Source: a virus. Taken from it: DNA of 64,000 bases. The notes beneath the pieces are model-generated. The model did not search any database, had not been told where the DNA came from, and saw only the letters and a program-made list of their open reading frames with translations. Shown one piece after another: positions 3,191 to 54,908 of the stretch. Both the position numbers and the translations under genes were made by a program. The stretch lies in IMG/VR virus record IMGVR_UViG_3300048924_000586, positions 5,776 to 69,775 of that record, one strand, 5' to 3'. How positions within the stretch are numbered: the first letter of the stretch is position 1; each line of letters starts with the position of its first letter.

Positions 3191-4344
3191 TGGGGAAGTT
3201 TGAAAAAGGTCAGTACGTGAGAGTGCTGCACACCGATTATGCTGAGGTTCTCGCCGTCGGCGACACTTTCAAGGTCGGCGAGGCCTATGGTCACGGCGCT
3301 GAGCCCGAGGGCGAGAACAAAGATCTGTTTTTCCTCAACCACGAACTCGAGCAGTGGGTACCGAAAGTCGGCGAGCGGGTGACGGTCAGTGCATCTGACG
3401 TGCTGGCTCACTGGAATGCGTATTGGGCGGAGACCGCCGGCGTTCGTTTGAACAAAGACGACCTCGTCTATGTGACGCAGGTCACGCCAAACTACAGTGC
3501 CGGTAAGGCTGGAATCAAGATTGCGGTGAAGGCTGGGGGAAAGGGTCCCATCTGGACGGTCGATCGGTTCAGCCCGGCTCTCGCCACCCTTACCATCGAA
3601 GCCGGCAAATTCTATAAGACGCGCGACGGCCGGAAGGTCGGGCCGGTGACGCACAACGGCTACGGTGTTTATGGGGCGCCCGGCTTCGGCGGCGCCAAAT
3701 GGTATGCAACTGGTCGCAGCTATTCGGATGAAAAGACGCTTCCCTCTGATCTCGTCGCCGAATGGGTCGACGAGCCGAAGGCCGGCAACGACAATGTCGG
3801 TATCGGGAGCCTGATCGGCAAGACAGTCACCGTCAAGATCGATAAGTCGAAGTTCAACGTCGGCGACCGTGTGAACAAAACGGACTGGCAGAGTTACAGC
3901 CCCAAAGGCTACGTCGTGACAAAGGTTGCGTCGGACGGGCTTTGGCTCGATCCCGGCAATGGAATGGCGCCGGTTCGCTACAAACTGCCAGACGACGAAT
4001 TCTGGCTGGTTCCGGCGAAGCCCGCCACCAAGCCCGCCATCGTCTGCCTCATCGAGAACGGCCAGCCCAAGCCATCCGATCGCCCGCACATCCATGCCGA
4101 CGAAGCCAAGGCCGGCAAGGAAGCCGCGCGTCTCGCGGGCGTCTATAAGGGCAAGGAGTTTGGCGTCTTCGTGCTGACCTCCAGCACGTCGCAGCCCGCG
4201 CCGGTCTACAAGCACGAATGGCAGCGCCAGGCCGCCGCCGGTAACAAGATCAGTGCGATCAAGGAACTGCGGGCCGCCAATGACCTGACGCTCAAGGGCG
4301 CCAAGGATGCCGTCGAGCACTGGCTCGACTTCATCGCCGCCTAA
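3190..4344 (+). CDS. Mosaic early protein with a C-terminal ribosomal L7/L12-CTD-like domain
   Basis: GNKISAIKELRAANDLTLKGAKDAVE resembles the L7/L12 KIxxIKxxR..LKxAK motif; ends IAA. Confidence 0.65.
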   Translation: MGKFEKGQYVRVLHTDYAEVLAVGDTFKVGEAYGHGAEPEGENKDLFFLNHELEQWVPKVGERVTVSASDVLAHWNAYWAETAGVRLNKDDLVYVTQVTPNYSAGKAGIKIAVKAGGKGPIWTVDRFSPALATLTIEAGKFYKTRDGRKVGPVTHNGYGVYGAPGFGGAKWYATGRSYSDEKTLPSDLVAEWVDEPKAGNDNVGIGSLIGKTVTVKIDKSKFNVGDRVNKTDWQSYSPKGYVVTKVASDGLWLDPGNGMAPVRYKLPDDEFWLVPAKPATKPAIVCLIENGQPKPSDRPHIHADEAKAGKEAARLAGVYKGKEFGVFVLTSSTSQPAPVYKHEWQRQAAAGNKISAIKELRAANDLTLKGAKDAVEHWLDFIAA

Positions 4345-5161: not shown

Positions 5162-5974
5162 ATGGCTATTTCATGGGATAAGCTTGAAGACACGTCCGAT
5201 ACCGATCCGCCGATCGTAACGCTCTATGGCGGCGCGAAGCTCGGCAAGACCACCCTCGCATCTGAGTTTCCGGCACCCTACTACTGCCGCACCGGTGAAG
5301 GCGAGAGACAGTCGGCCGGCGCACCGATGAAGTCGTTCGGTGTGTCCGAGACCTACCAGGACGTCATCGACCAGGCCGATTACCTCCTGCAGGCGGAGCA
5401 TGACCGCAGGACCTATGTACTCGACGCGCTCGACGGTCTGGAAATCATGATCCATGCCGAGGCGTGTGCACGCAACAACTGGCCGGATATCGAGGCACCC
5501 GGCTTCGGCAAGGGTTACGCTGCTGCGCAGGCCATCTGGCACGAGTTCATCAAGAAGATGCTCGAACTCAAGAAGGCCGGCTTCTACGTCATCTTGATTT
5601 CGCACGTGAAGGCGAAAACCGTGCCGGGTGTCACAACCGACAGCTACCCGCGGTACATGCTCAATCTGCGCGATGACGCCGGCAGTGCGATTTGCGATGC
5701 GTCCGACCTTATCGGTTTTCTGCATCAGCCGGTGTCGATCAAGAAGGAAGATCTGGGATTCAAGAAAACCGCTAATCGCGGGCAGGGCGGAGGCGACGTT
5801 TCCATTGCTGTGCAGGAGCGGCCGGGCTTCATCGCCGGCAACCGCTATCAGATCCCGAACCCGACCTTGTCATTCAAGATGGGGAAGGGTTTCGCTGCGC
5901 TGAACGCATTCTTCCCACCGCAGCCGGACATCGCCACCGAGGTGGTCGAAGAAGAGCAGGAGGAGGCGGCGTGA
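5162..5974 (+). CDS. AAA_24/Sak4-like recombination ATPase
   Basis: Walker A YGGAKLGKTT, Walker B YVLDALD, ISH motif, GFGKGY. Confidence 0.85.
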   Translation: MAISWDKLEDTSDTDPPIVTLYGGAKLGKTTLASEFPAPYYCRTGEGERQSAGAPMKSFGVSETYQDVIDQADYLLQAEHDRRTYVLDALDGLEIMIHAEACARNNWPDIEAPGFGKGYAAAQAIWHEFIKKMLELKKAGFYVILISHVKAKTVPGVTTDSYPRYMLNLRDDAGSAICDASDLIGFLHQPVSIKKEDLGFKKTANRGQGGGDVSIAVQERPGFIAGNRYQIPNPTLSFKMGKGFAALNAFFPPQPDIATEVVEEEQEEAA

Positions 5975-13510: not shown

Positions 13511-13594
13511 TGTGTCCTCCGGTTGAACGACTCTCAGGATACCACACCACCCAGCGCGCCACCAACGTGTTGGTTTCACCACAGAGGAGAGAAT

Positions 13595-17947: not shown

Positions 17948-18107
17948 TATCCAGATAGTTGAGCAGGTCGACCAGATCGTCGGCCTGCTCCATGTCCAGA
18001 CCGTCTTGGAGAACGCCTTTAACCTTCGCCGGTAGGCCGGTGAAGATGTCGAAGACCGTCCACGAACCATCATTCTCTTTGCGCATGTCATAGCGGTTCT
18101 TATGCAT
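17919..18107 (-). CDS. Small hypothetical protein
   Basis: GGAGG RBS; RYDMRKE..WTVFDIFTG. Confidence 0.6.
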   Translation of the reverse strand: MHKNRYDMRKENDGSWTVFDIFTGLPAKVKGVLQDGLDMEQADDLVDLLNYLDIKRREETQR

Positions 18108-18128
18108 GCCGGTACCTCCGGAGGGTTT

Positions 18129-20459
18129 ATGCCTGATCTTACCACGCAGCCAACCACCCCAAAAGACCTCGCCCTCTCATACGTCTATCGCGGTGTCCCG
18201 GTGTTTCCGTGCCGGGCCGCCGACGAGGTGACGGACCAGTTCGACCCCGATACCGGCGAGATCATCGTCTACAAGGCGAAGACCCCGCTGCGCTCCAACG
18301 GCTTCAAAGGCGCGACCGTAAACGGCGGTCTCGTCGGCCGTATGTGGGACAATTACCCGTCTGCCATGGTCGGCATCCCCACCGGTGAGCAGCTCGGCGC
18401 ATGGGTGCTCGACGTTGACGTTCACAAAGACGAAAATGGTAACGTCATCAATGGTTACGAGACGCTCGCTCGACTCGAAGATAAGCACGGCACATTGCCG
18501 GAAACCGCCCGTGCCAAGACGGCAGGCGGCGGCACCCACTATTATTTCAAGCACGTCCCGAGCGTCCGAAACCGCGGTGGTCTCGGCGCCGGTCTCGACG
18601 TGCGTGGATCCGGTGGCTACGTCATCGCCCCCGGCAGCGTGACCGGCGACGGTCGAGAATATCTATGGGTGGACTTCGACGGCGAGGGCATGCCGGACAT
18701 CGGCGATGCCCCAGAATGGCTGCTCGATCTGGTCACGCCCCCGCCAGCCACGTCCGGCCCGGTGGACTATAGCTATGAGCCCGGCACGAACGACGCCTAT
18801 ATCGATCAGGCAATCCGGTTGGAGCTTGAGGAGACGGCGGCTGTCCCGATGGGCGGTGGCCGCAACAATCGTCTCAATCAGGCATCCTATGCACTTGGCA
18901 CATTCGTCGGCGCTGGCGCTTTGCGGGAGAGCGAGGCGCGAGACTTATTGCAGGGCGTGGCGCGTGCGTGGGCTCGCGACTGGACGCAGTGCTGCAAGAC
19001 GATCGATAATGGCTTGAAGGCTGGCATGGCGAACCCGCGCGTCATTCCCGAACGGACGATGGCCGACACGACGCCATCGATCGACGCCGAGCGCATGGTC
19101 GCGAACACGCTGGCCAAACGAGAGCATCCCACCCCCGAACCCGTCGTGGAAGATGACGAGCTGCCCGAGTACAAACTTGAGGCGGTGCGAGAGCTTGAGG
19201 ATCTGACCTATCCAGGTGGACTGGTGGAGGATCTCATCGACTGGATCGTATCGTCAGCCGAGCAGCCCAGCCGGCCTTTGGCTCTCGCTGCCGTGTTGCC
19301 GTTCGTCGCCTCGCTTTGCGGACCGCGGTACTCGACGACGAGCCGAGACACGCGCCCGAACATCTATTCCGTAGCCCTCGCTGAATCGGGTTTCGGTAAG
19401 GATCACGCGCGCTCGCAGATCAAACGGCTGCTGATGTCTGATCACGGCGTATTCGAGAAGTTCAGCGGCCCGGCCCGTATCATGTCGGCATCAGCGCTGC
19501 GCGAGGTCCTCGAAGCCAACCAGTCCGTCAATTGTCAGATCGACGAGTTCGGCGGCTTCATTCGCGATATCACTGACCGAAAGGCTGGCAGCCACCAGCG
19601 CGCGATCTCCACAGACTTACGCGACTACTATTCCGCCAGCTCAACCTTCTTCGAGGGAGCAGCCTATCGCGGCACGCCCCCGAAGCGGATCTACAACCCA
19701 ATCTTGTGCGTCCACGGCACATCGACGCCTGAGCAGTTCTGGTCGGCCTTGTCATCGGCCAGCGCCGAGGATGGCCTGCTGCCGCGTCTGATCCTGTTTC
19801 ATATCACCGGATCAAAGCCGGCAGTGGTGAAGCCCACCAAGACCGTCCGCGACGTGCCGTACCTCCTCATGGAGCGCATGGCGACCGTGGCCGGTATCGA
19901 TGTGGCCAAGAAGCGCGGAAACCTCGGCAAGGTCGGTTACTCGTCCGACACGGCGCCGTCGGGTGAGGTCAAGCCGCATGTCATCCCATGGACGCCGGAT
20001 GCGGAAGGCTTGCTGCGGGCGGTCAAGGAGACGATCGAGGAAAAGGAGAGGGCGGTCGCGGCTGATGCGCAGCCATTTGTTCGCCGCATCGTCGAGAACG
20101 CCATCAAGCTGGCCATCGTCGTCGCTGTCGGCCGTGACCCGGTCGAGCCGGTAATCAACGAGGAGGTCTTTGAATGGGCGGCTGCCGTGGCGTGGACCTG
20201 CGCTGCTGCGATGCTCTCGGAGGTCGGTGAGCGCCTGGCGGACAACCAGCGTGAGGCGAACTACAAAAAGATCGCCGGGCTGATCAAGAAGGCCAAGGGC
20301 GGCATCACCGAAGGCAAGCTGGCAGATCGATGCAAAGCTATTGATGGTTGGCAACGCAAGGAGATCCTTGAGGACCTTCAGAAGACTGGTCAGGTCGAGT
20401 TTGCCGCCAATGACAATAAGCCAGGCAGGCCGTCTCGGCGATTGATATGGGTTGGGTAA
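18129..20459 (+). CDS. Bifunctional primase-polymerase fused to a DUF3987-like helicase
   Basis: PVFPC, VLDVD, TAGGGTHYYF, LDVRGSGGYVIAPGS; AESGFGKD, IDEFG, DGLLPR. Confidence 0.92.
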   Translation: MPDLTTQPTTPKDLALSYVYRGVPVFPCRAADEVTDQFDPDTGEIIVYKAKTPLRSNGFKGATVNGGLVGRMWDNYPSAMVGIPTGEQLGAWVLDVDVHKDENGNVINGYETLARLEDKHGTLPETARAKTAGGGTHYYFKHVPSVRNRGGLGAGLDVRGSGGYVIAPGSVTGDGREYLWVDFDGEGMPDIGDAPEWLLDLVTPPPATSGPVDYSYEPGTNDAYIDQAIRLELEETAAVPMGGGRNNRLNQASYALGTFVGAGALRESEARDLLQGVARAWARDWTQCCKTIDNGLKAGMANPRVIPERTMADTTPSIDAERMVANTLAKREHPTPEPVVEDDELPEYKLEAVRELEDLTYPGGLVEDLIDWIVSSAEQPSRPLALAAVLPFVASLCGPRYSTTSRDTRPNIYSVALAESGFGKDHARSQIKRLLMSDHGVFEKFSGPARIMSASALREVLEANQSVNCQIDEFGGFIRDITDRKAGSHQRAISTDLRDYYSASSTFFEGAAYRGTPPKRIYNPILCVHGTSTPEQFWSALSSASAEDGLLPRLILFHITGSKPAVVKPTKTVRDVPYLLMERMATVAGIDVAKKRGNLGKVGYSSDTAPSGEVKPHVIPWTPDAEGLLRAVKETIEEKERAVAADAQPFVRRIVENAIKLAIVVAVGRDPVEPVINEEVFEWAAAVAWTCAAAMLSEVGERLADNQREANYKKIAGLIKKAKGGITEGKLADRCKAIDGWQRKEILEDLQKTGQVEFAANDNKPGRPSRRLIWVG

Positions 20460-21474: not shown

Positions 21475-21996
21475 ATGGCAAAAATCCCCACACAGAGAAC
21501 CACGCAGACCACGCGCTACCAAGGCCGGAAGGTTCGCATCATCACCACGACATCCTCGACAGGCACGAAGGTCACCGTGACGGATGCGCCGGTCGAAGAA
21601 TGGATCTTGCAGGCCGCCGCTGTCGCCGCACTCAAAAACATGCCGGAATACGCTGGCGACGCCGACAAGGTGGCTGCCAACGACAACGCAGGACGGCCGA
21701 GCTTCACTCTTGCAGCAGACATGAACGGCGATAATCGAAGCCGACAGGCTGCCCTGAAGGCAACGGCGACGGGCATTGCGGCCGGTGATCCTGATCTCCG
21801 CATCTACCTGCCCAACGGCGTTCTCAAGCTGATCGAATACAAGAATGCCGAGGGCGTACTCACTAAGAGCCAGCGCATTCGTCACCCGCTTCTTTTCCGT
21901 CTCGGCCATCCGGTCGTTACTCTCAAGGTAGCGAGCAAGGAAGAGGCGGCGGCAAGGACGGTCGAGCTGGTTCGAAACTGGCTAGCTGTTGCTTGA
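21475..21996 (+). CDS. VRR-NUC-like nuclease
   Basis: EWILQ, GIAAGDPDL, IEYK...SQ. Confidence 0.8.
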   Translation: MAKIPTQRTTQTTRYQGRKVRIITTTSSTGTKVTVTDAPVEEWILQAAAVAALKNMPEYAGDADKVAANDNAGRPSFTLAADMNGDNRSRQAALKATATGIAAGDPDLRIYLPNGVLKLIEYKNAEGVLTKSQRIRHPLLFRLGHPVVTLKVASKEEAAARTVELVRNWLAVA

Positions 21997-22364: not shown

Positions 22365-22474
22365 GAACCAACTCCGAACAAATGGCTGCGTCGGCGCCAT
22401 CAATGCCCTGCGGCATTTAACGCAAAGTTAACAGATCGCGTTTGCGCACAGTTAACCACCACAGAGGAGACGAC

Positions 22475-23392
22475 ATGGCACGACACGGATCACTTGCTGA
22501 GCAACTCGATGCATTCCTGACATTCGCCACCGCGCCGGACCATGAGCCGGAGCCGATCCAGACGAACTGGGCCATCACGCCGGCCAATGACAACAATCCT
22601 GAAGATGTTGCCGATCTCAAGACCGAGAAGCTCTGGGACATATCGCCCTCGGTCGAGGAGGTGATGAGGCAGGTCAAGTCTGGCCCGGTTCATCGCAACG
22701 ATGCTGGTCAGACGGTGCGTATTGGTCGCTTACGCTTCTCAGACGGCACGCAGACCGAGCAGGCCATGAAGGTCACCATCGACGGGAAAGTCGTCACGTT
22801 CCAAGATCGCATGCCTACAGGCGCCATGCTCGGCACGATCGACAAGGAGAGGGCGCAGCGCGGTGGTGATGACAATCCGCAGGAACTCACAGACAGCAAC
22901 GAATATTTCGCCGAGATGCTCGGAACCCGCAAGCCGCGCTATGTCACCGCTTCGAAGAAACGTCAGCCACGACAGCAGATCAGCCACGACGAGGCAAAGC
23001 GCATTCTGGCGGACGCCTACGCCAAGGCAGGCGACGTCAACAAACTGATCACGCGCTACCCGGATGGCCTACCTTGCGGGTCGCAAAAGGTGGCGGATAG
23101 CTTTCTCGGCATGCGGAAGACGACCTGCGCAGGTGGTGGATCGATGGCGTGGCAGGATGTGGCTTCGGAAACCGAGCAGCGACGGTCATGGCATGAGGCG
23201 GTTGGCTACATGGCAGACGAGCACTTCGACATTCTGACAAGCGCCAGCAAGTCCAAGAGCCTGAAGGAAATCGGTCAGGCCCGAGGCTTCAAAGGGCAGT
23301 ATGCAATCGAGGCAGGAAGGCGACTGTTGATTGCCGCCAACGATAACTTCGCAGAAGCGCTGGATTTGGCGCGTTATGCCAAATCGGCCTGA
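22475..23392 (+). CDS. Hypothetical phage protein, probable late-gene regulator
   Basis: Last early gene; C-terminal HTH-like SLKEIGQARGF; PANDN and AANDNFAE. Confidence 0.7.
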   Translation: MARHGSLAEQLDAFLTFATAPDHEPEPIQTNWAITPANDNNPEDVADLKTEKLWDISPSVEEVMRQVKSGPVHRNDAGQTVRIGRLRFSDGTQTEQAMKVTIDGKVVTFQDRMPTGAMLGTIDKERAQRGGDDNPQELTDSNEYFAEMLGTRKPRYVTASKKRQPRQQISHDEAKRILADAYAKAGDVNKLITRYPDGLPCGSQKVADSFLGMRKTTCAGGGSMAWQDVASETEQRRSWHEAVGYMADEHFDILTSASKSKSLKEIGQARGFKGQYAIEAGRRLLIAANDNFAEALDLARYAKSA

Positions 23393-23417
23393 CTTTCTGA
23401 GAAGTTGCCACCTGTAT

Positions 23418-23870
23418 AGGTGAAGGGGTTGCCGGATAGGCGCCCCACACCTTTCCGGGCGCACCGATGTTGCGACGGAGCCTCGGCCAGCGATGAGCCG
23501 GGGCTAACTATCCTGAACCGCGACAGGACGAGCCACGACGGTGGACCCTTTCCGGTATTCGAGCATTAGCTCAATCCGTATCGCTGCGGTGATGCGGCAC
23601 CTACAGCCTACCCTTGATCCTCTGTCCCTTCGTCTGCACCGGGTTTCGTACCGTGGCAGAGGCGGCGGATATGTCTGGCCCGTGAAATGACAGGGCGACG
23701 CTGCGGACGCGCTTCGTTGGTAGTCCATATTCGGCCATTCACCGATAGATGCTTGCGGCTTGGACGCGGCATTCGGTTGGCCTTGCCAATCCCCACGTCG
23801 ACCTCTCCTCCGTCGTGTGGTGATCCCTGCGGCTGGCTCGCTTCGGCTTGAGCCGGCCGCTTTCGGTTTC
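23418..23870 (+). ncRNA. Candidate structured late-leader RNA/sRNA
   Basis: About 450 nt without a credible ORF; consecutive hairpins with G-U pairs; CTCTCCTCC loop at 23803-23811. Confidence 0.5.
23829..23869 (+). terminator. Intrinsic terminator
   Basis: GCGGCTGGCTC...GAGCCGGCCGC followed by TTTCGGTTT. Confidence 0.7.
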
Positions 23871-23970
23871 TCGGGGTGTGCACCAGATAAAGTTGTGGAT
23901 TTTTACTGATTCGCTCTTATCTTGAACGCCTTCGCATGCTGTCTGGGCTCATCAGCTTATGGTGGGGGCC

Positions 23971-24813
23971 ATGGACAAGAGTTTCACATTTCGTTTCTAC
24001 AACGTTTCTCGTACCGACCCAAAAAAGCCACCGATGGTGGACCTGTTGCGACAAGTTGCACAGGAAAAAGACCGTTTAAAAAGGGAACATCAAGTAATTC
24101 AGGGCTATACTATTCGCCTTGAGGAATTAGAAGATGACGGCGCGGACGCGGTAATTGGTGAATTTGTCCGATGCCAATCGACAAATCTACCGAGTGAGAT
24201 TGACGGCTCCGCCAGGAGAGCCTTGGCTGCCAAGCAGTTGGGACATAGCATCGTTTTCCGATTGAACCACAAATTGGGCGTTATCGGCATTCAGCATGAT
24301 CCTCGAATAGTGTCGCTAGGTAGGATTCTGGAGTATCTCAGGATCTACAATGCGGGTGCCTTCTTCGACGTTGCACCTAGAATCAACAAAGATGCATGGA
24401 AAAAATTCAACGCAGGATCAGTGCGAAAGCTTTCTTTGAGAATTGCCTCTCCAGATACGATGGATGACTTAGGTGGCGATGGAAAAGCGGCATCAAGCGG
24501 ACTGAAAGCGCTCGCAGACGCGTATGACGCGCCGACGATCGGAATAGAGCTGTCGATGGGCAACCACAAAGGTTTCCTAGCCAACTCCGTCAAAGGTCTC
24601 GCTGATCTTCTCTCAAAAGCAGTGGGGCCGACTTCCCGCGTAGATAAACTTACTGCTGTTACCGTAATCAACGATGTTTCTGAGGAGGTTGACTTGATCG
24701 AGGAAAGGCAAATACTGCAAGACACACTGGCAATAGATGACCGTGATCCAGATAAAAATTATGAAGTGAAGAAAACATATCTAGCACGTGAAATGAAGAA
24801 GTTGATCGGATGA
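23971..24813 (+). CDS. Moron protein, DUF6731/DUF4747-like
   Basis: Low GC relative to flanks; F.FYNV..., IRLEEL, GEFVR; family assignment from memory. Confidence 0.6.
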   Translation: MDKSFTFRFYNVSRTDPKKPPMVDLLRQVAQEKDRLKREHQVIQGYTIRLEELEDDGADAVIGEFVRCQSTNLPSEIDGSARRALAAKQLGHSIVFRLNHKLGVIGIQHDPRIVSLGRILEYLRIYNAGAFFDVAPRINKDAWKKFNAGSVRKLSLRIASPDTMDDLGGDGKAASSGLKALADAYDAPTIGIELSMGNHKGFLANSVKGLADLLSKAVGPTSRVDKLTAVTVINDVSEEVDLIEERQILQDTLAIDDRDPDKNYEVKKTYLAREMKKLIG

Positions 24814-25286
24814 CAGCGGCGATCGAGCGTTTCGGACCTGTATGTGCTGCGTCGCTCATGGTGGCTGCGCTGTACTATTTCCGTGGCGACTTAGTTCTAA
24901 TGGCGTTCAACGGGCAGCTAGACCTGAAAAACGTATATGCCTCTGTGTTCGATTGGTCATCCATCCAAACGGGTTTTGTATTCGGGATTTTTGGCTTTGT
25001 AGCAGGTAAGAGCGGAGGTTTTATCGAGGCCATTCGCGATACTAAGGAAATGGCTCTCTTTCTCACATATACAAAGCGAGCTATTTACCTAGGCTTCTGC
25101 CTGACGTTCTCCAGCATAGTCATGTCGATCACGTCATTCGATGTTTCGAGCGGTGGGCCTTGGAAGTTTCATATTTTTGCTGTCTGGTCGTTTGTATCAT
25201 TATGGGGATTCCTAGCGTTTCTCCGTGTTGCGTACATTTTTGGTGACATACTGCGGGTACGTGATCGAGTGCGGATCCCGGGATAA
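24810..25286 (+). CDS. 4-TM membrane protein, partner of the upstream moron gene
   Basis: ATGA-coupled, low GC, four hydrophobic segments. Confidence 0.75.
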   Translation: MTAAIERFGPVCAASLMVAALYYFRGDLVLMAFNGQLDLKNVYASVFDWSSIQTGFVFGIFGFVAGKSGGFIEAIRDTKEMALFLTYTKRAIYLGFCLTFSSIVMSITSFDVSSGGPWKFHIFAVWSFVSLWGFLAFLRVAYIFGDILRVRDRVRIPG

Positions 25287-25962: not shown

Positions 25963-26013
25963 TGCACTGGATGAAAAAAGCGATGCAAAATACTGAAAAC
26001 CATCATTTTATTG

Positions 26014-26042
26014 TTGACAACGCCGGTGGCGCATGCTATCAT
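26014..26042 (+). promoter_or_regulatory. Sigma70-like promoter upstream of the packaging genes
   Basis: TTGACA-17-TATCAT. Confidence 0.6.
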
Positions 26043-26054
26043 GGTGAGGCCACC

Positions 26055-26135
26055 CCCTCGGTCGGGTCCCTCTGACCCCCTGCCGGGCCTATGCGGGCGG
26101 GAAGGCCCGGACTTGAACTAGGTACGAAATTTTCC
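26055..26135. other. Probable cos region
   Basis: GC-rich GGGTCCC...TATGCGGGCGGG block directly upstream of Nu1/GpA-type terminase genes; cut site not determined. Confidence 0.45.
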
Positions 26136-26199
26136 AGAACCGCTTTCCTACTTGTCTACCCCGGCTGTCTCCCCCGTAGGGGGAGGTTGAGCGCCAACC

Positions 26200-26751
26200 A
26201 TGAAAGTGCTGACGCCGATGTCCAAGGGTAAGGAAGTCAGCCAGGCCGAACTTTCCGACATCATCGGCAAATCGCAGGTCACGCTCCGTGCGTGGGAGCG
26301 GGAAGGCATGCCGGTACTGTCGAAGGCCGGCAAGGGTAGAGCGTCGACCTACAACACGGTCGAGGTGATCGAATGGATGGAAGCGCGCCTGATATCCAAG
26401 TTTGCGGCCAGCAAGGAAGACGACACGGATGTCGTCTCAGAGGATGAGGGCCGGCGCCGCAAGATCGTAGCCGAGGCCAAGCTGGCCGAACTGAAACTTG
26501 CTGTCGAGAGCGGGGAGCTGGTCGAGATCGAGGCCGTTGGGGTCGAGGTCGATACTGTGTTGAGCAGCGTGCGAGCGCGGCTCCTGGCAATACCCGGAAC
26601 GCTGGCGCTGACGCTGACAAACGAACCGGACCCGTCCGTCGTTCGTGATCGCGTCTTTGACGAGATTTCGGGGGCACTGAATGAGCTATCAGCCGCTGAT
26701 CTCGGCAGGCCGAGCGAAGCTACAGGCGCGACTGAGGCAGTCGAGGCTTAA
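26200..26751 (+). CDS. Terminase small subunit (Nu1-like)
   Basis: wHTH VSQAELSDIIG..TLRAWEREGMP, YNT.EVIEW, coiled coil, RARLLAIP. Confidence 0.92.
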   Translation: MKVLTPMSKGKEVSQAELSDIIGKSQVTLRAWEREGMPVLSKAGKGRASTYNTVEVIEWMEARLISKFAASKEDDTDVVSEDEGRRRKIVAEAKLAELKLAVESGELVEIEAVGVEVDTVLSSVRARLLAIPGTLALTLTNEPDPSVVRDRVFDEISGALNELSAADLGRPSEATGATEAVEA

Positions 26752-54860: not shown

Positions 54861-54908
54861 TAGTTCATTGGCCTCACCAGCCAAATTCACCACACAGAGG
54901 AGGCCGTC

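Follow-up and report, generated by a model that had tools for sequence, protein, structure and literature searches.

What is encoded in the 566-nucleotide (nt) gene-free stretch (23393-23958) that follows the replication genes in the provirus of IMG/VR record IMGVR_UViG_3300048924_000586, and does it act as an RNA? The window analysed here, 64,000 nt of one strand, corresponds to positions 5776-69775 of that record, which is 69,775 bases long, and all coordinates given below are those of the window. An earlier note, made from the sequence alone, had proposed that about 450 nt of back-to-back hairpins form a structured, late non-coding RNA (ncRNA) with a segment antisense to a leader shared by many of the phage's own genes. 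Comparison with relatives identifies 23393-23870 as one copy of a conserved, plus-strand ncRNA cassette, positioned at the end of the replication operon right behind a gene that encodes a phrog_36072 protein. As judged by the aligned sequences, the cassette has two universal parts, a multi-helix 5′ domain and a 3′ unit made of two hairpins, D1 and D2, joined by a linker that tolerates insertions. It probably has a role in governing the expression of phage genes.

A conserved two-part RNA cassette

Among GenBank phages, a match to the spacer was found only in Rhizobium phage RHph_TM3_3_14B, in which a primase gene, a VRR-NUC gene, a homologous hypothetical gene, a 363-nt spacer, and HNH, endonuclease VII and terminase genes follow one another in the same order. 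Relatives were gathered by protein search, and then by a search with a seven-sequence protein alignment, giving 80 IMG/VR loci and 12 genome loci, the latter named Rhizobium, Neorhizobium, Agrobacterium, Brucella (pseudintermedia, pseudogrignonensis and daejeonensis), Tianweitania and one proteobacterial metagenome-assembled genome. A long spacer lies behind the gene in all eight of the sequences first compared. Covariance models of the 5′ domain (R1) and the 3′ unit (R2) were run over 94 sources and, a few weak extra matches apart, both match at the same place behind the phrog_36072 gene, on the plus strand and once per source. The host range of the cassette, as it now stands, covers prophages of Rhizobium, Agrobacterium, Neorhizobium, Brucella/Ochrobactrum and Tianweitania.

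The 3′ unit begins with hairpin D1 (23789-23824, plus strand; 12 pairs in the minimum free energy (MFE) fold), whose 9-nt apical loop, CUCUCCUCC at 23803-23811, is an anti-Shine-Dalgarno (anti-SD) sequence with all eight motif bases unpaired in the same fold. The second hairpin, D2 (23829-23860), has 12 pairs, 9 of them G-C, around a loop of 8 and is followed by a U-tract (23861-23870) with the tail TTTCGGTTTC, the make-up of an intrinsic (Rho-independent) terminator (23829-23870, plus strand). The MFE fold and the terminator scan therefore confirm a penultimate hairpin that exposes the CU-rich motif, and a terminator at the end, as the earlier note had described them. In a MAFFT alignment that is independent of the model, made from 28 of 65 distinct sequences picked for diversity, eight outer pairs of D1 and eight pairs of D2 were named; these show 91.9% pairing, with compensatory changes in 10 of the 16 pairs, and only 32-53% pairing when the partners are slid. 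R2 matches 90 of the 94 sources, with one plus-strand match in each and two weak minus-strand extras, and in the 73 distinct rows of its alignment 94.3% of the cells are paired and 13 of the 16 pairs have changes on both sides (the slid controls for the R1 and R2 model alignments together give 30-58%). The D2 stem, which contains an internal CUC/UUGAG motif, is 98.6-98.7% paired, with compensatory changes in six of its eight pairs.

The inner part of D1 behaves differently from its drifting stem. CTCCTC is present in 72 of the 73 distinct copies and a CCTCC, CTCCT or TCCTC word in all 73, the longest pyrimidine runs being TTCTCCTCC (20 copies), TTTCTCCTCC (19), CCTCCTCTC (11) and CCTCCTCC (7); by regular expression, 67 of 69 distinct relatives likewise have a CCTCCTC-type CU-rich word at some point after the 5′ domain. 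Of the 44 single-sequence folds among the rows listed, 40 leave at least seven motif bases unpaired, and at least six T occur in the 10 nt after D2 in 51 of the 73 distinct copies. With a conserved unpaired seed and a 3′ intrinsic terminator, the 3′ unit has features expected in general of a trans-acting, base-pairing small RNA (sRNA). In relatives (alignment A6; L065:3820-3860 compared with L092:4010-4045), an internal helix of D2, GG-UU-GAGC / GCUC-CC with a UU bulge, is kept, and it is found on opposite arms according to lineage, as CUCCC...GGUUGAGC or as GGUUGAGC...GCUCCC.

The 5′ structured domain (23399-23515, plus strand; 116.3 bits with R1) was modelled from the first ~120 nt of eight aligned sequences, for which RNAalifold returned a structure with compensatory changes in 8 of 23 pairs. 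R1 matches 85 of the 94 sources, each once and all on the plus strand. In 60 distinct rows 93.9% of the cells are paired, compared with a mean of 84.4% after shuffling and 30-42% with slid partners, and 14 of the 23 pairs have changes on both sides; the alignment was fitted to the model and so is biased towards structure, but the slid controls and the pair-type numbers are still far apart. The domain is 117 nt long in the window and 110-160 nt in relatives, and has three or more helices. These include an extended P2 (AGGUG-AA-GGGG...CCCC-A-CACCU), P3 (CCG-GCGC...GCG-CGG) and a long P4 that, among relatives, has an optional inserted hairpin. By eye, the outer extension of P2 is AGGUG/CACCU in the window and GAGCG/CGCUC or AAUGU/ACAUU in relatives, and the unpaired bases GUA, UGAAGGGG, CCA...UGAG and (G/C)UAACUAU (GUAACUAU) are nearly invariant. 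Six sources missed by R1 (L083-L088) have GTAAC-type words upstream of the D1-D2 module, and L083, L084 and L087 also have UGAAGGG at the right spacing. A brute-force search of the domain for further covarying column pairs or pseudoknots returned wobble noise only.

In paired cells, G.U exceeds A.C by 93:1 in the 5′ domain and by 67:6 in the 3′ unit and, as an A.C is a G.U on the opposite strand, selection must have acted on the plus-strand RNA. All 58 neighbouring transfer RNA (tRNA) genes are also on the plus strand. Covariation and this asymmetry bear out a structured plus-strand ncRNA, although the idea of hairpins back to back over 450 nt holds only for 23399-23515 and 23779-23878, where the solid support comes from comparison with relatives and does not include the middle. 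Folding energy over the whole 488 nt is modest relative to shuffled sequences (z of -2.38 for the plus strand and -2.07 for the minus strand). The Rfam search that the earlier note had called for gave no match at the gathering score for the whole window and none at E<=10 for 23300-24000; within the cassette of 11 relatives, a search at E<=0.1 returned tRNAs and nothing else. Elsewhere in one of these phages (L083:126-266), the alphaproteobacterial sRNA family ar35 matches above its gathering score (52 bits, cut-off 45). Of five host genomes with a relative, four contain the 3′ unit once and the fifth gives two strong matches and a weak one; the unit is present in 7 of 141 sampled genomes of the host family. 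Such a distribution is the pattern of a prophage-borne element, rather than that of a host sRNA family.

The stop codon of the phrog_36072 gene is no more than ~15 nt from the 5′ domain in nearly all rows listed, and no sigma-70-like promoter was found in 23000-23900. The RNA, described beforehand as late, therefore looks like the tail of the early or middle replication operon, and nothing assigns it to the late class. Inspection by eye of module C (see below) and of the region upstream of D1 gave no convincing sigma-32-like or phage-specific promoter motif.

The two conserved parts joined directly would make a minimal cassette of about 240 nt; the window copy has about 470 nt. The middle was compared by blastn of 23516-23958 against 69 distinct downstream regions of relatives, which showed a block at 23610-23725 common to one set of relatives and a block at 23728-23782 common to another. 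The linker proper (23516-23602, plus strand) has no blastn counterpart among these regions. Module B (23603-23725, plus strand) is a mosaic insert present in the window as a diverged copy, with matches to L099, L012, L036, L014, L095, L032 and others; relatives have cleaner copies, of the form ...CCUAGUCCUCUG-[hairpin around CACCGGGUUUCGUACCGUGG]-...AACAGGAGGGCGC...GGAUGCA, and six further distinct copies were aligned by eye. In L011, L014, L032, L085, L086 and L095, module B is a ~130-nt insert with an internal CCUCUG...CAGGAGGG pairing. The copies in relatives place an SD-like AGGAGG inside the same RNA as the anti-SD loop; this AGGAGG has been lost from the window copy. Module C (23728-23782, plus strand), a second mosaic insert, is a block of 55 nt that stands out from its surroundings by much higher conservation, with 96% identity to L015 (over 23729-23869), 93% to L100, 87% to L092 and about 80% to Rhizobium phage RHph_TM3_3_14B (L002).

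In relatives, the 5′ domain and the D1 loop are separated by anything from 11 to 494 nt, and the linker often holds tRNA genes or almost nothing. Plus-strand tRNA genes are present within 1300 nt in 45 of 69 distinct relatives, and a tRNA lies no more than 900 nt after D2 in 37 of the 73 distinct copies. Some relatives have a tRNA-Met flush between the 5′ domain and D1. In L022, for example, the R1 match ends at 3552 and the R2 match starts at 3617, with a tRNA at 3551-3624 between the two, and L083 likewise has a tRNA in this place. ARAGORN found neither a tRNA nor a transfer-messenger RNA in the window, and no open reading frame (ORF) of at least 100 amino acids (aa) is present between 23393 and 23958.

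On the plus strand, a primase/helicase gene (18102-20459) and a VRR-NUC-like nuclease gene (21475-21996) precede the phrog_36072 gene (22475-23392, or from 22442 with the alternative start; PHROG match 4e-113), which is directly upstream of the cassette in every case. The true start is probably the ATG at 22475 (MARHGSLAE...), based on the start M[AT]RHGS that is conserved when start regions of homologues are compared; the gene's own leader is CACCACAGAGGAGA at 22457-22470. The protein had been taken for a putative late regulator, a description that gains nothing from the searches: it matches no Pfam family, comparison with Protein Data Bank (PDB) profiles gave nothing significant (best E 0.55), and Foldseek against PDB gave no match at E<=0.001 with an AlphaFold2 model that is poor overall (mean predicted local distance difference test score, pLDDT, of 42.9) and confident only at residues about 250-315. 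Its matches in the Protein Atlas are hypothetical proteins only. In the Brucella-type group (L044, L048, L051, L066 and others), the stop codon of the homologue lies within a small GCGGC...GCCGC hairpin, in the ~20 nt around that codon, that is followed by TTTTT and immediately precedes the 5′ domain, and nearly all relatives keep CTTTC(T/C) at the stop-codon spot.

Behind the gene-free stretch, the window has a low-GC gene pair (23959-25286, plus strand; GC 0.47-0.51, compared with ~0.6) whose products are a protein of 284 aa that matches DUF6731 weakly, below threshold, and a membrane protein of 158 aa; the pair looks like a moron at a mosaic junction. PADLOC returned nothing for either moron protein or for the phrog_36072 protein. 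A neck/tail-completion protein gene and a lambda-type terminase, with Nu1 at 26200 and gpA at 26681, follow. Ahead of the Nu1-like small terminase gene there is a near-consensus sigma-70-type promoter at 26014-26042 (TTGACA, 17 nt, TATCAT with TG; 11 of 12 positions), and the spacer that holds it is also the expected place of a lambda-type cos site.

The shared leader and its predicted pairing

A crude call, based on ORFs of at least 60 aa with an SD-like word and either high GC at third codon positions or length, gave 85 start regions in the window. In 18 of these, CACCAC is present upstream of the SD, typically as CACCACAGAGGAGA followed by 4-6 nt and ATG. The leader consensus recognised from three examples is thus real and wider than had been seen. 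Twelve of the 18 are at 2.5-22.5 kb, four at 54.9-58.3 kb and two at 42-45 kb, mostly outside the structural module, with example start codons at 5162, 7073, 10266, 13595, 22475 and 58247. The word TCACCACA occurs seven times in the window, relative to 1.56 expected, and none of 100 shuffles reached seven. Leaders of this type are also used by the relatives G001 (15/88 start regions), G003 (13/48) and W01 (16/80); the Brucella-type relative G004 has the leader AACACGAGGA instead.

The reverse complement of 23803-23823 is TCACCACACGACGGAGGAGAG, and three plus-strand leaders, candidate targets, resemble it as had been stated: TCACCACAAGAGGAGAG (2579-2595, before ATG 2598), TCACCACAGAGGAGAG (13576-13591, before ATG 13595; net free-energy change (ddG) on cofolding of -12.8 kcal/mol) and TCACCACACAGAGGAG (54887-54902, before ATG 54909). 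The D1 3′ arm and linker, GUCGUGUGGUGAUC, are complementary to the CACCACA part of the leaders. In 17 of the 85 start regions there is a complement, at least 7 nt long, to the 16 nt that follow the loop on its 3′ side; when this 16-mer was shuffled 2000 times with its composition preserved, the mean was 1.9 start regions (p about 0.003). This antisense relationship stands for the window phage but failed in the four relatives tested, whose D1 hairpins have such a complement in 1/36 (G002), 1/48 (G003), 0/51 (G004) and 2/80 (W01) of their own start regions. Extension onto the TCACCACA part of the leader is found only in the window phage and in G001, which has the same D1-D2 module and the same leaders; the G003 and W01 hairpins lack it although both phages use CACCAC-type leaders (by another count, three of the four relatives do).

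For the 84-nt D1-D2 RNA, the net cofold ddG is predicted to average -11.3 kcal/mol with the 18 CACCAC-type leaders and -4.9 kcal/mol with the 67 other start regions, in duplexes that use both the loop and the 3′ arm. A duplex of the loop with the SD is calculated at a mean of -12.7 kcal/mol over the 18 CACCAC-type start regions, compared with -10.6 kcal/mol for the true 16S ribosomal RNA (rRNA) tail of a Rhizobium host, which was taken from G006 as the draft genome G005 has no 16S gene. Plain duplex energies of 33-nt segments are all about -30 kcal/mol.

Competing explanations for the cassette

The reading that we favour, if with a confidence that stops somewhat short of even, is that the cassette is an anti-SD riboregulator at the end of the replication operon. 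It is preferred because the loop stays an exact complement of the SD while the stem drifts, and because the cuckoo sRNAs of alphaproteobacteria, discussed below, provide a precedent. We infer that transcripts of the upstream operon would include the cassette as their 3′ tail and that termination at D2, together with 5′ processing, would release a D1-D2 RNA of about 85-100 nt. Processing could be by tRNA-processing enzymes where a tRNA is embedded, and otherwise by RNase E-type cleavage; the relatives with a tRNA flush between the 5′ domain and D1 make the release of a separate RNA plausible. The exposed CUCCUC loop would then pair with purine-rich ribosome-binding sites (RBS; GAGGAG), compete with the anti-SD of 16S rRNA and lower translation. 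The phage's own genes with the uniform CACCACAGAGGAGA leader are the strongest of the predicted targets and, in the window phage, the D1 3′ arm could extend the duplex onto CACCACA. The 5′ domain might be a separate functional RNA domain, either a binding site for a protein or RNA polymerase, or a processing or stability element.

Several observations weigh against such a riboregulator. It gives the 5′ domain no role, and the U-tract after D2 is absent from 22 of the 73 distinct copies, mainly in the Brucella-type group. SD pairing as such is generic, which leaves target specificity a prediction. The longer complementarity is confined to a lineage, the CUCCUC loop alone being universal by sequence comparison, and the matrix of cofold energies shows no preference for own over foreign start regions. 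The one RNA run with a match, a soil metatranscriptome (share 0.06), has three contigs of 151-267 nt over 23594-23873 that come from a relative with 90-99% identity, have no flank coverage and diverge from the window just outside these limits, on the right exactly at 23873; they fit the module boundaries, but could be DNA carry-over, their strand and ends being unreadable, and are no proof of transcription. Finally, the first tRNA begins no more than 16 nt after the D2 stem, at the end of the U-tract, in 18 of the 73 distinct copies, and L002 and L014 each have an ORF that begins 19-20 nt beyond D2, the annotated HNH gene in the case of L002. As these tRNAs and ORFs abut D2 with no room for a promoter, polymerase must often read through D2, and for such read-through a cis-acting leader or terminator switch is an explanation no worse than an sRNA gene, and perhaps a better one.

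A cis-acting leader of a late or tRNA unit is accordingly the alternative to be taken most seriously, possible although we rate it as rather unlikely. D2 would be a gate at the early-late boundary, read-through would be driven by the 5′ domain alone, as with HK022 put, or together with the phrog_36072 protein, as in the lambda N-nut and Q-qut systems, the D1 loop would be a protein-binding or pause element, and the terminated RNA a by-product like the 6S RNA of lambda; this is compatible with the RNA also acting as an sRNA. The proposal would supply a role for the 5′ domain, whose conserved unpaired junction bases suggest a specific binding partner and whose linkage to the gene is strict, and it agrees with a cassette that always lies between the replication module and tRNAs or packaging genes. 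In RHph_TM3_3_14B, D2 is separated by 19 nt from the HNH-terminase operon that follows it, and this spacer gave no sigma-70-like promoter. A cis-acting leader leaves unexplained, however, the exact anti-SD D1 loop in all 73 distinct copies, the searches linked the protein to no antiterminator or sigma factor, and the missing U-tracts count against a gate as well. In the window, the moron and the strong promoter at 26014-26042 separate D2 from the terminase genes, and the gate would therefore not control the packaging genes there. The model of the earlier note, in which the RNA pairs with the entire leader, CACCACA as well as SD, and in this way silences the class of early genes, is improbable. 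The excess of complementary start regions, the location of most CACCAC-type leaders outside the structural module and two-helix cofold duplexes of -12 to -17.5 kcal/mol net speak for it, but the extension is located in the base-paired 3′ arm, pairs only with a 5-nt bulge, and in relatives covaries with the 5′ arm rather than being kept. The window hairpin is also predicted to bind start regions of foreign phages equally well, and the p-value loses weight because just one of four distinct hairpin types is positive.

The remaining explanations dispense with a regulator of mRNAs. That the loop mimics the 3′ end of 16S rRNA, as a decoy that titrates a factor recognising that end, is very unlikely, even though it equals the anti-SD core. 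The 11-mer at 23826-23836 (CCTGCGGCTGG) is identical to part of the 3′ strand of helix 45 in Rhizobium 16S rRNA, and GGUGAUC at 23818-23824 is complementary to 16S GAUCACC, which is next to the anti-SD. The order of the blocks, however, differs from that in 16S, and the 11-mer lies within the covarying terminator stem and is, by eye, shortened or changed in most relatives; since most of them keep only part of it, the identity may be chance in a G+C-rich stem. A site in the DNA, be it a cos site, an origin or an attachment site, is if anything less credible. The module boundary and mosaic junction would suit one, and the lambda-like terminase (Nu1/gpA) implies a cos somewhere, but strand-asymmetric G.U and covariation in several helices are signatures of RNA, and the cassette precedes tRNAs on the same strand. 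In lambda-like phages cos is normally just upstream of Nu1, which here points to the spacer 25963-26199. We give practically no credence to the possibility, which the earlier note had itself raised, that the motif is the RBS of a small minus-strand ORF. On that strand, GGAGGAGAGG is followed after 5-7 nt by a GTG (23796) and a 62-codon open frame. In 67 relatives, the corresponding frames are 2-67 aa long, unrelated and often antisense into a tRNA, and 14 of the 67 have no start codon within 3-12 nt. The window frame has no Pfam or PHROG match, and the excess of G.U over A.C puts selection on the plus strand.

A more speculative combination, for which we see only a slim chance, is that the whole cassette forms a single regulatory RNA, modular, carried by phages and belonging to a new class, with tRNAs embeddable in it. 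The 5′ domain would dock it to the phrog_36072 protein or to the machinery of transcription or translation, the terminal hairpin would imitate the 16S anti-SD and, once the RNA accumulates, titrate the CACCACAGAGGAGA RBSs of the replication genes, and controlled read-through of the terminator would turn on the tRNAs and packaging genes. If this were true, a single RNA would perform the early-to-late switch both translationally and transcriptionally.

Relation to known RNAs and meaning for these phages

The alphaproteobacterial cuckoo sRNAs are described as having variable stems and conserved CCUCCUCCC loops and as co-transcribed with an upstream gene, the family being defined by two to four adjacent hairpins with CCUCCUCCC in each loop (PMC4615179). 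Like the cuckoo RNAs (alpha-r14/NfeR1 of Sinorhizobium, CcsR1-4/RSs0680 of Rhodobacter), the cassette is alphaproteobacterial, varies its stem by compensatory changes, keeps a CU-rich anti-SD loop and has a terminator next to it. In contrast, its loop is CUCUCCUCC, UUCUCCUCC or CCUCCUCUC rather than CCUCCUCCC, with just 1 of the 73 copies reading TCCTCCTCCC; it has one motif hairpin, D1, the next hairpin being the terminator, and no motif in the loops of the 5′ domain. It is also phage-borne, single copy, fused to a conserved 5′ domain and interleaved with tRNAs, and it has no Rfam match. RNAIII-type regulators are long, multi-hairpin RNAs in which a C-rich terminal hairpin loop beside the terminator pairs with SD regions. 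The cassette is similar in having a terminal loop that would seed on the SD, and is unrelated in sequence, host and context and has no coding part; regulators of this type in Staphylococcus aureus are mentioned in PMC4615179.

The put RNA of HK022 is described as an RNA of about 70 nt that forms two stem-loops and lies immediately downstream of the early promoters (PMC9378689). Both it and the 5′ domain are structured nascent phage RNAs, upstream of terminators that are to be read through, with adjacent stacked helices and no closing stem. As the 5′ domain has about 117-135 nt and at least three helices, and is located at an operon end behind a gene, the label put-like that had been proposed for the upstream hairpins is best kept as a functional analogy only. 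In lambda, the order is Q, PR′, qut, 6S RNA and tR′, and in Stx phages tRNAs lie behind tR′. The cassette shares the order of a gene, a short terminated non-coding transcript, a terminator, tRNAs and late genes, and differs in that no promoter was found at it, that the upstream protein has no detected similarity to a regulator, and that the conserved element is an RNA structure rather than a DNA site. Spacers of tRNA transcripts are also a source of sRNAs, such as 3′ETS-leuZ, and large phage ncRNAs, GOLLD and ROOL, occur beside tRNAs. These too are structured RNAs joined to tRNA genes, presumably freed by tRNA processing, and have a prophage context; their size and architecture are different, and the cassette has no match to any Rfam model, including any for GOLLD and ROOL. 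The cassette thus lacks the defining features of both the cuckoo family and putRNA, and resembles each of them in its logic. The literature searched, mainly at the level of abstracts, yielded neither a description of the cassette nor a phage-encoded sRNA in alphaproteobacteria.

The cassette constitutes a new and well-supported structured RNA family, with two covarying domains, about 90 loci and at least five Rhizobiales host genera, and it occupies a fixed and functionally loaded site in temperate phage genomes. Its position accounts for the clustering of tRNA genes at this spot in these phages, and R1 and R2 can be used to annotate the early-late boundary in Rhizobiales prophages. A phage hairpin here copies the anti-SD of the ribosome while the phage's own early genes share a uniform, strong RBS leader, an arrangement that provides a testable model, either of class-wide translational control or of RNA-based control of the early-late boundary.

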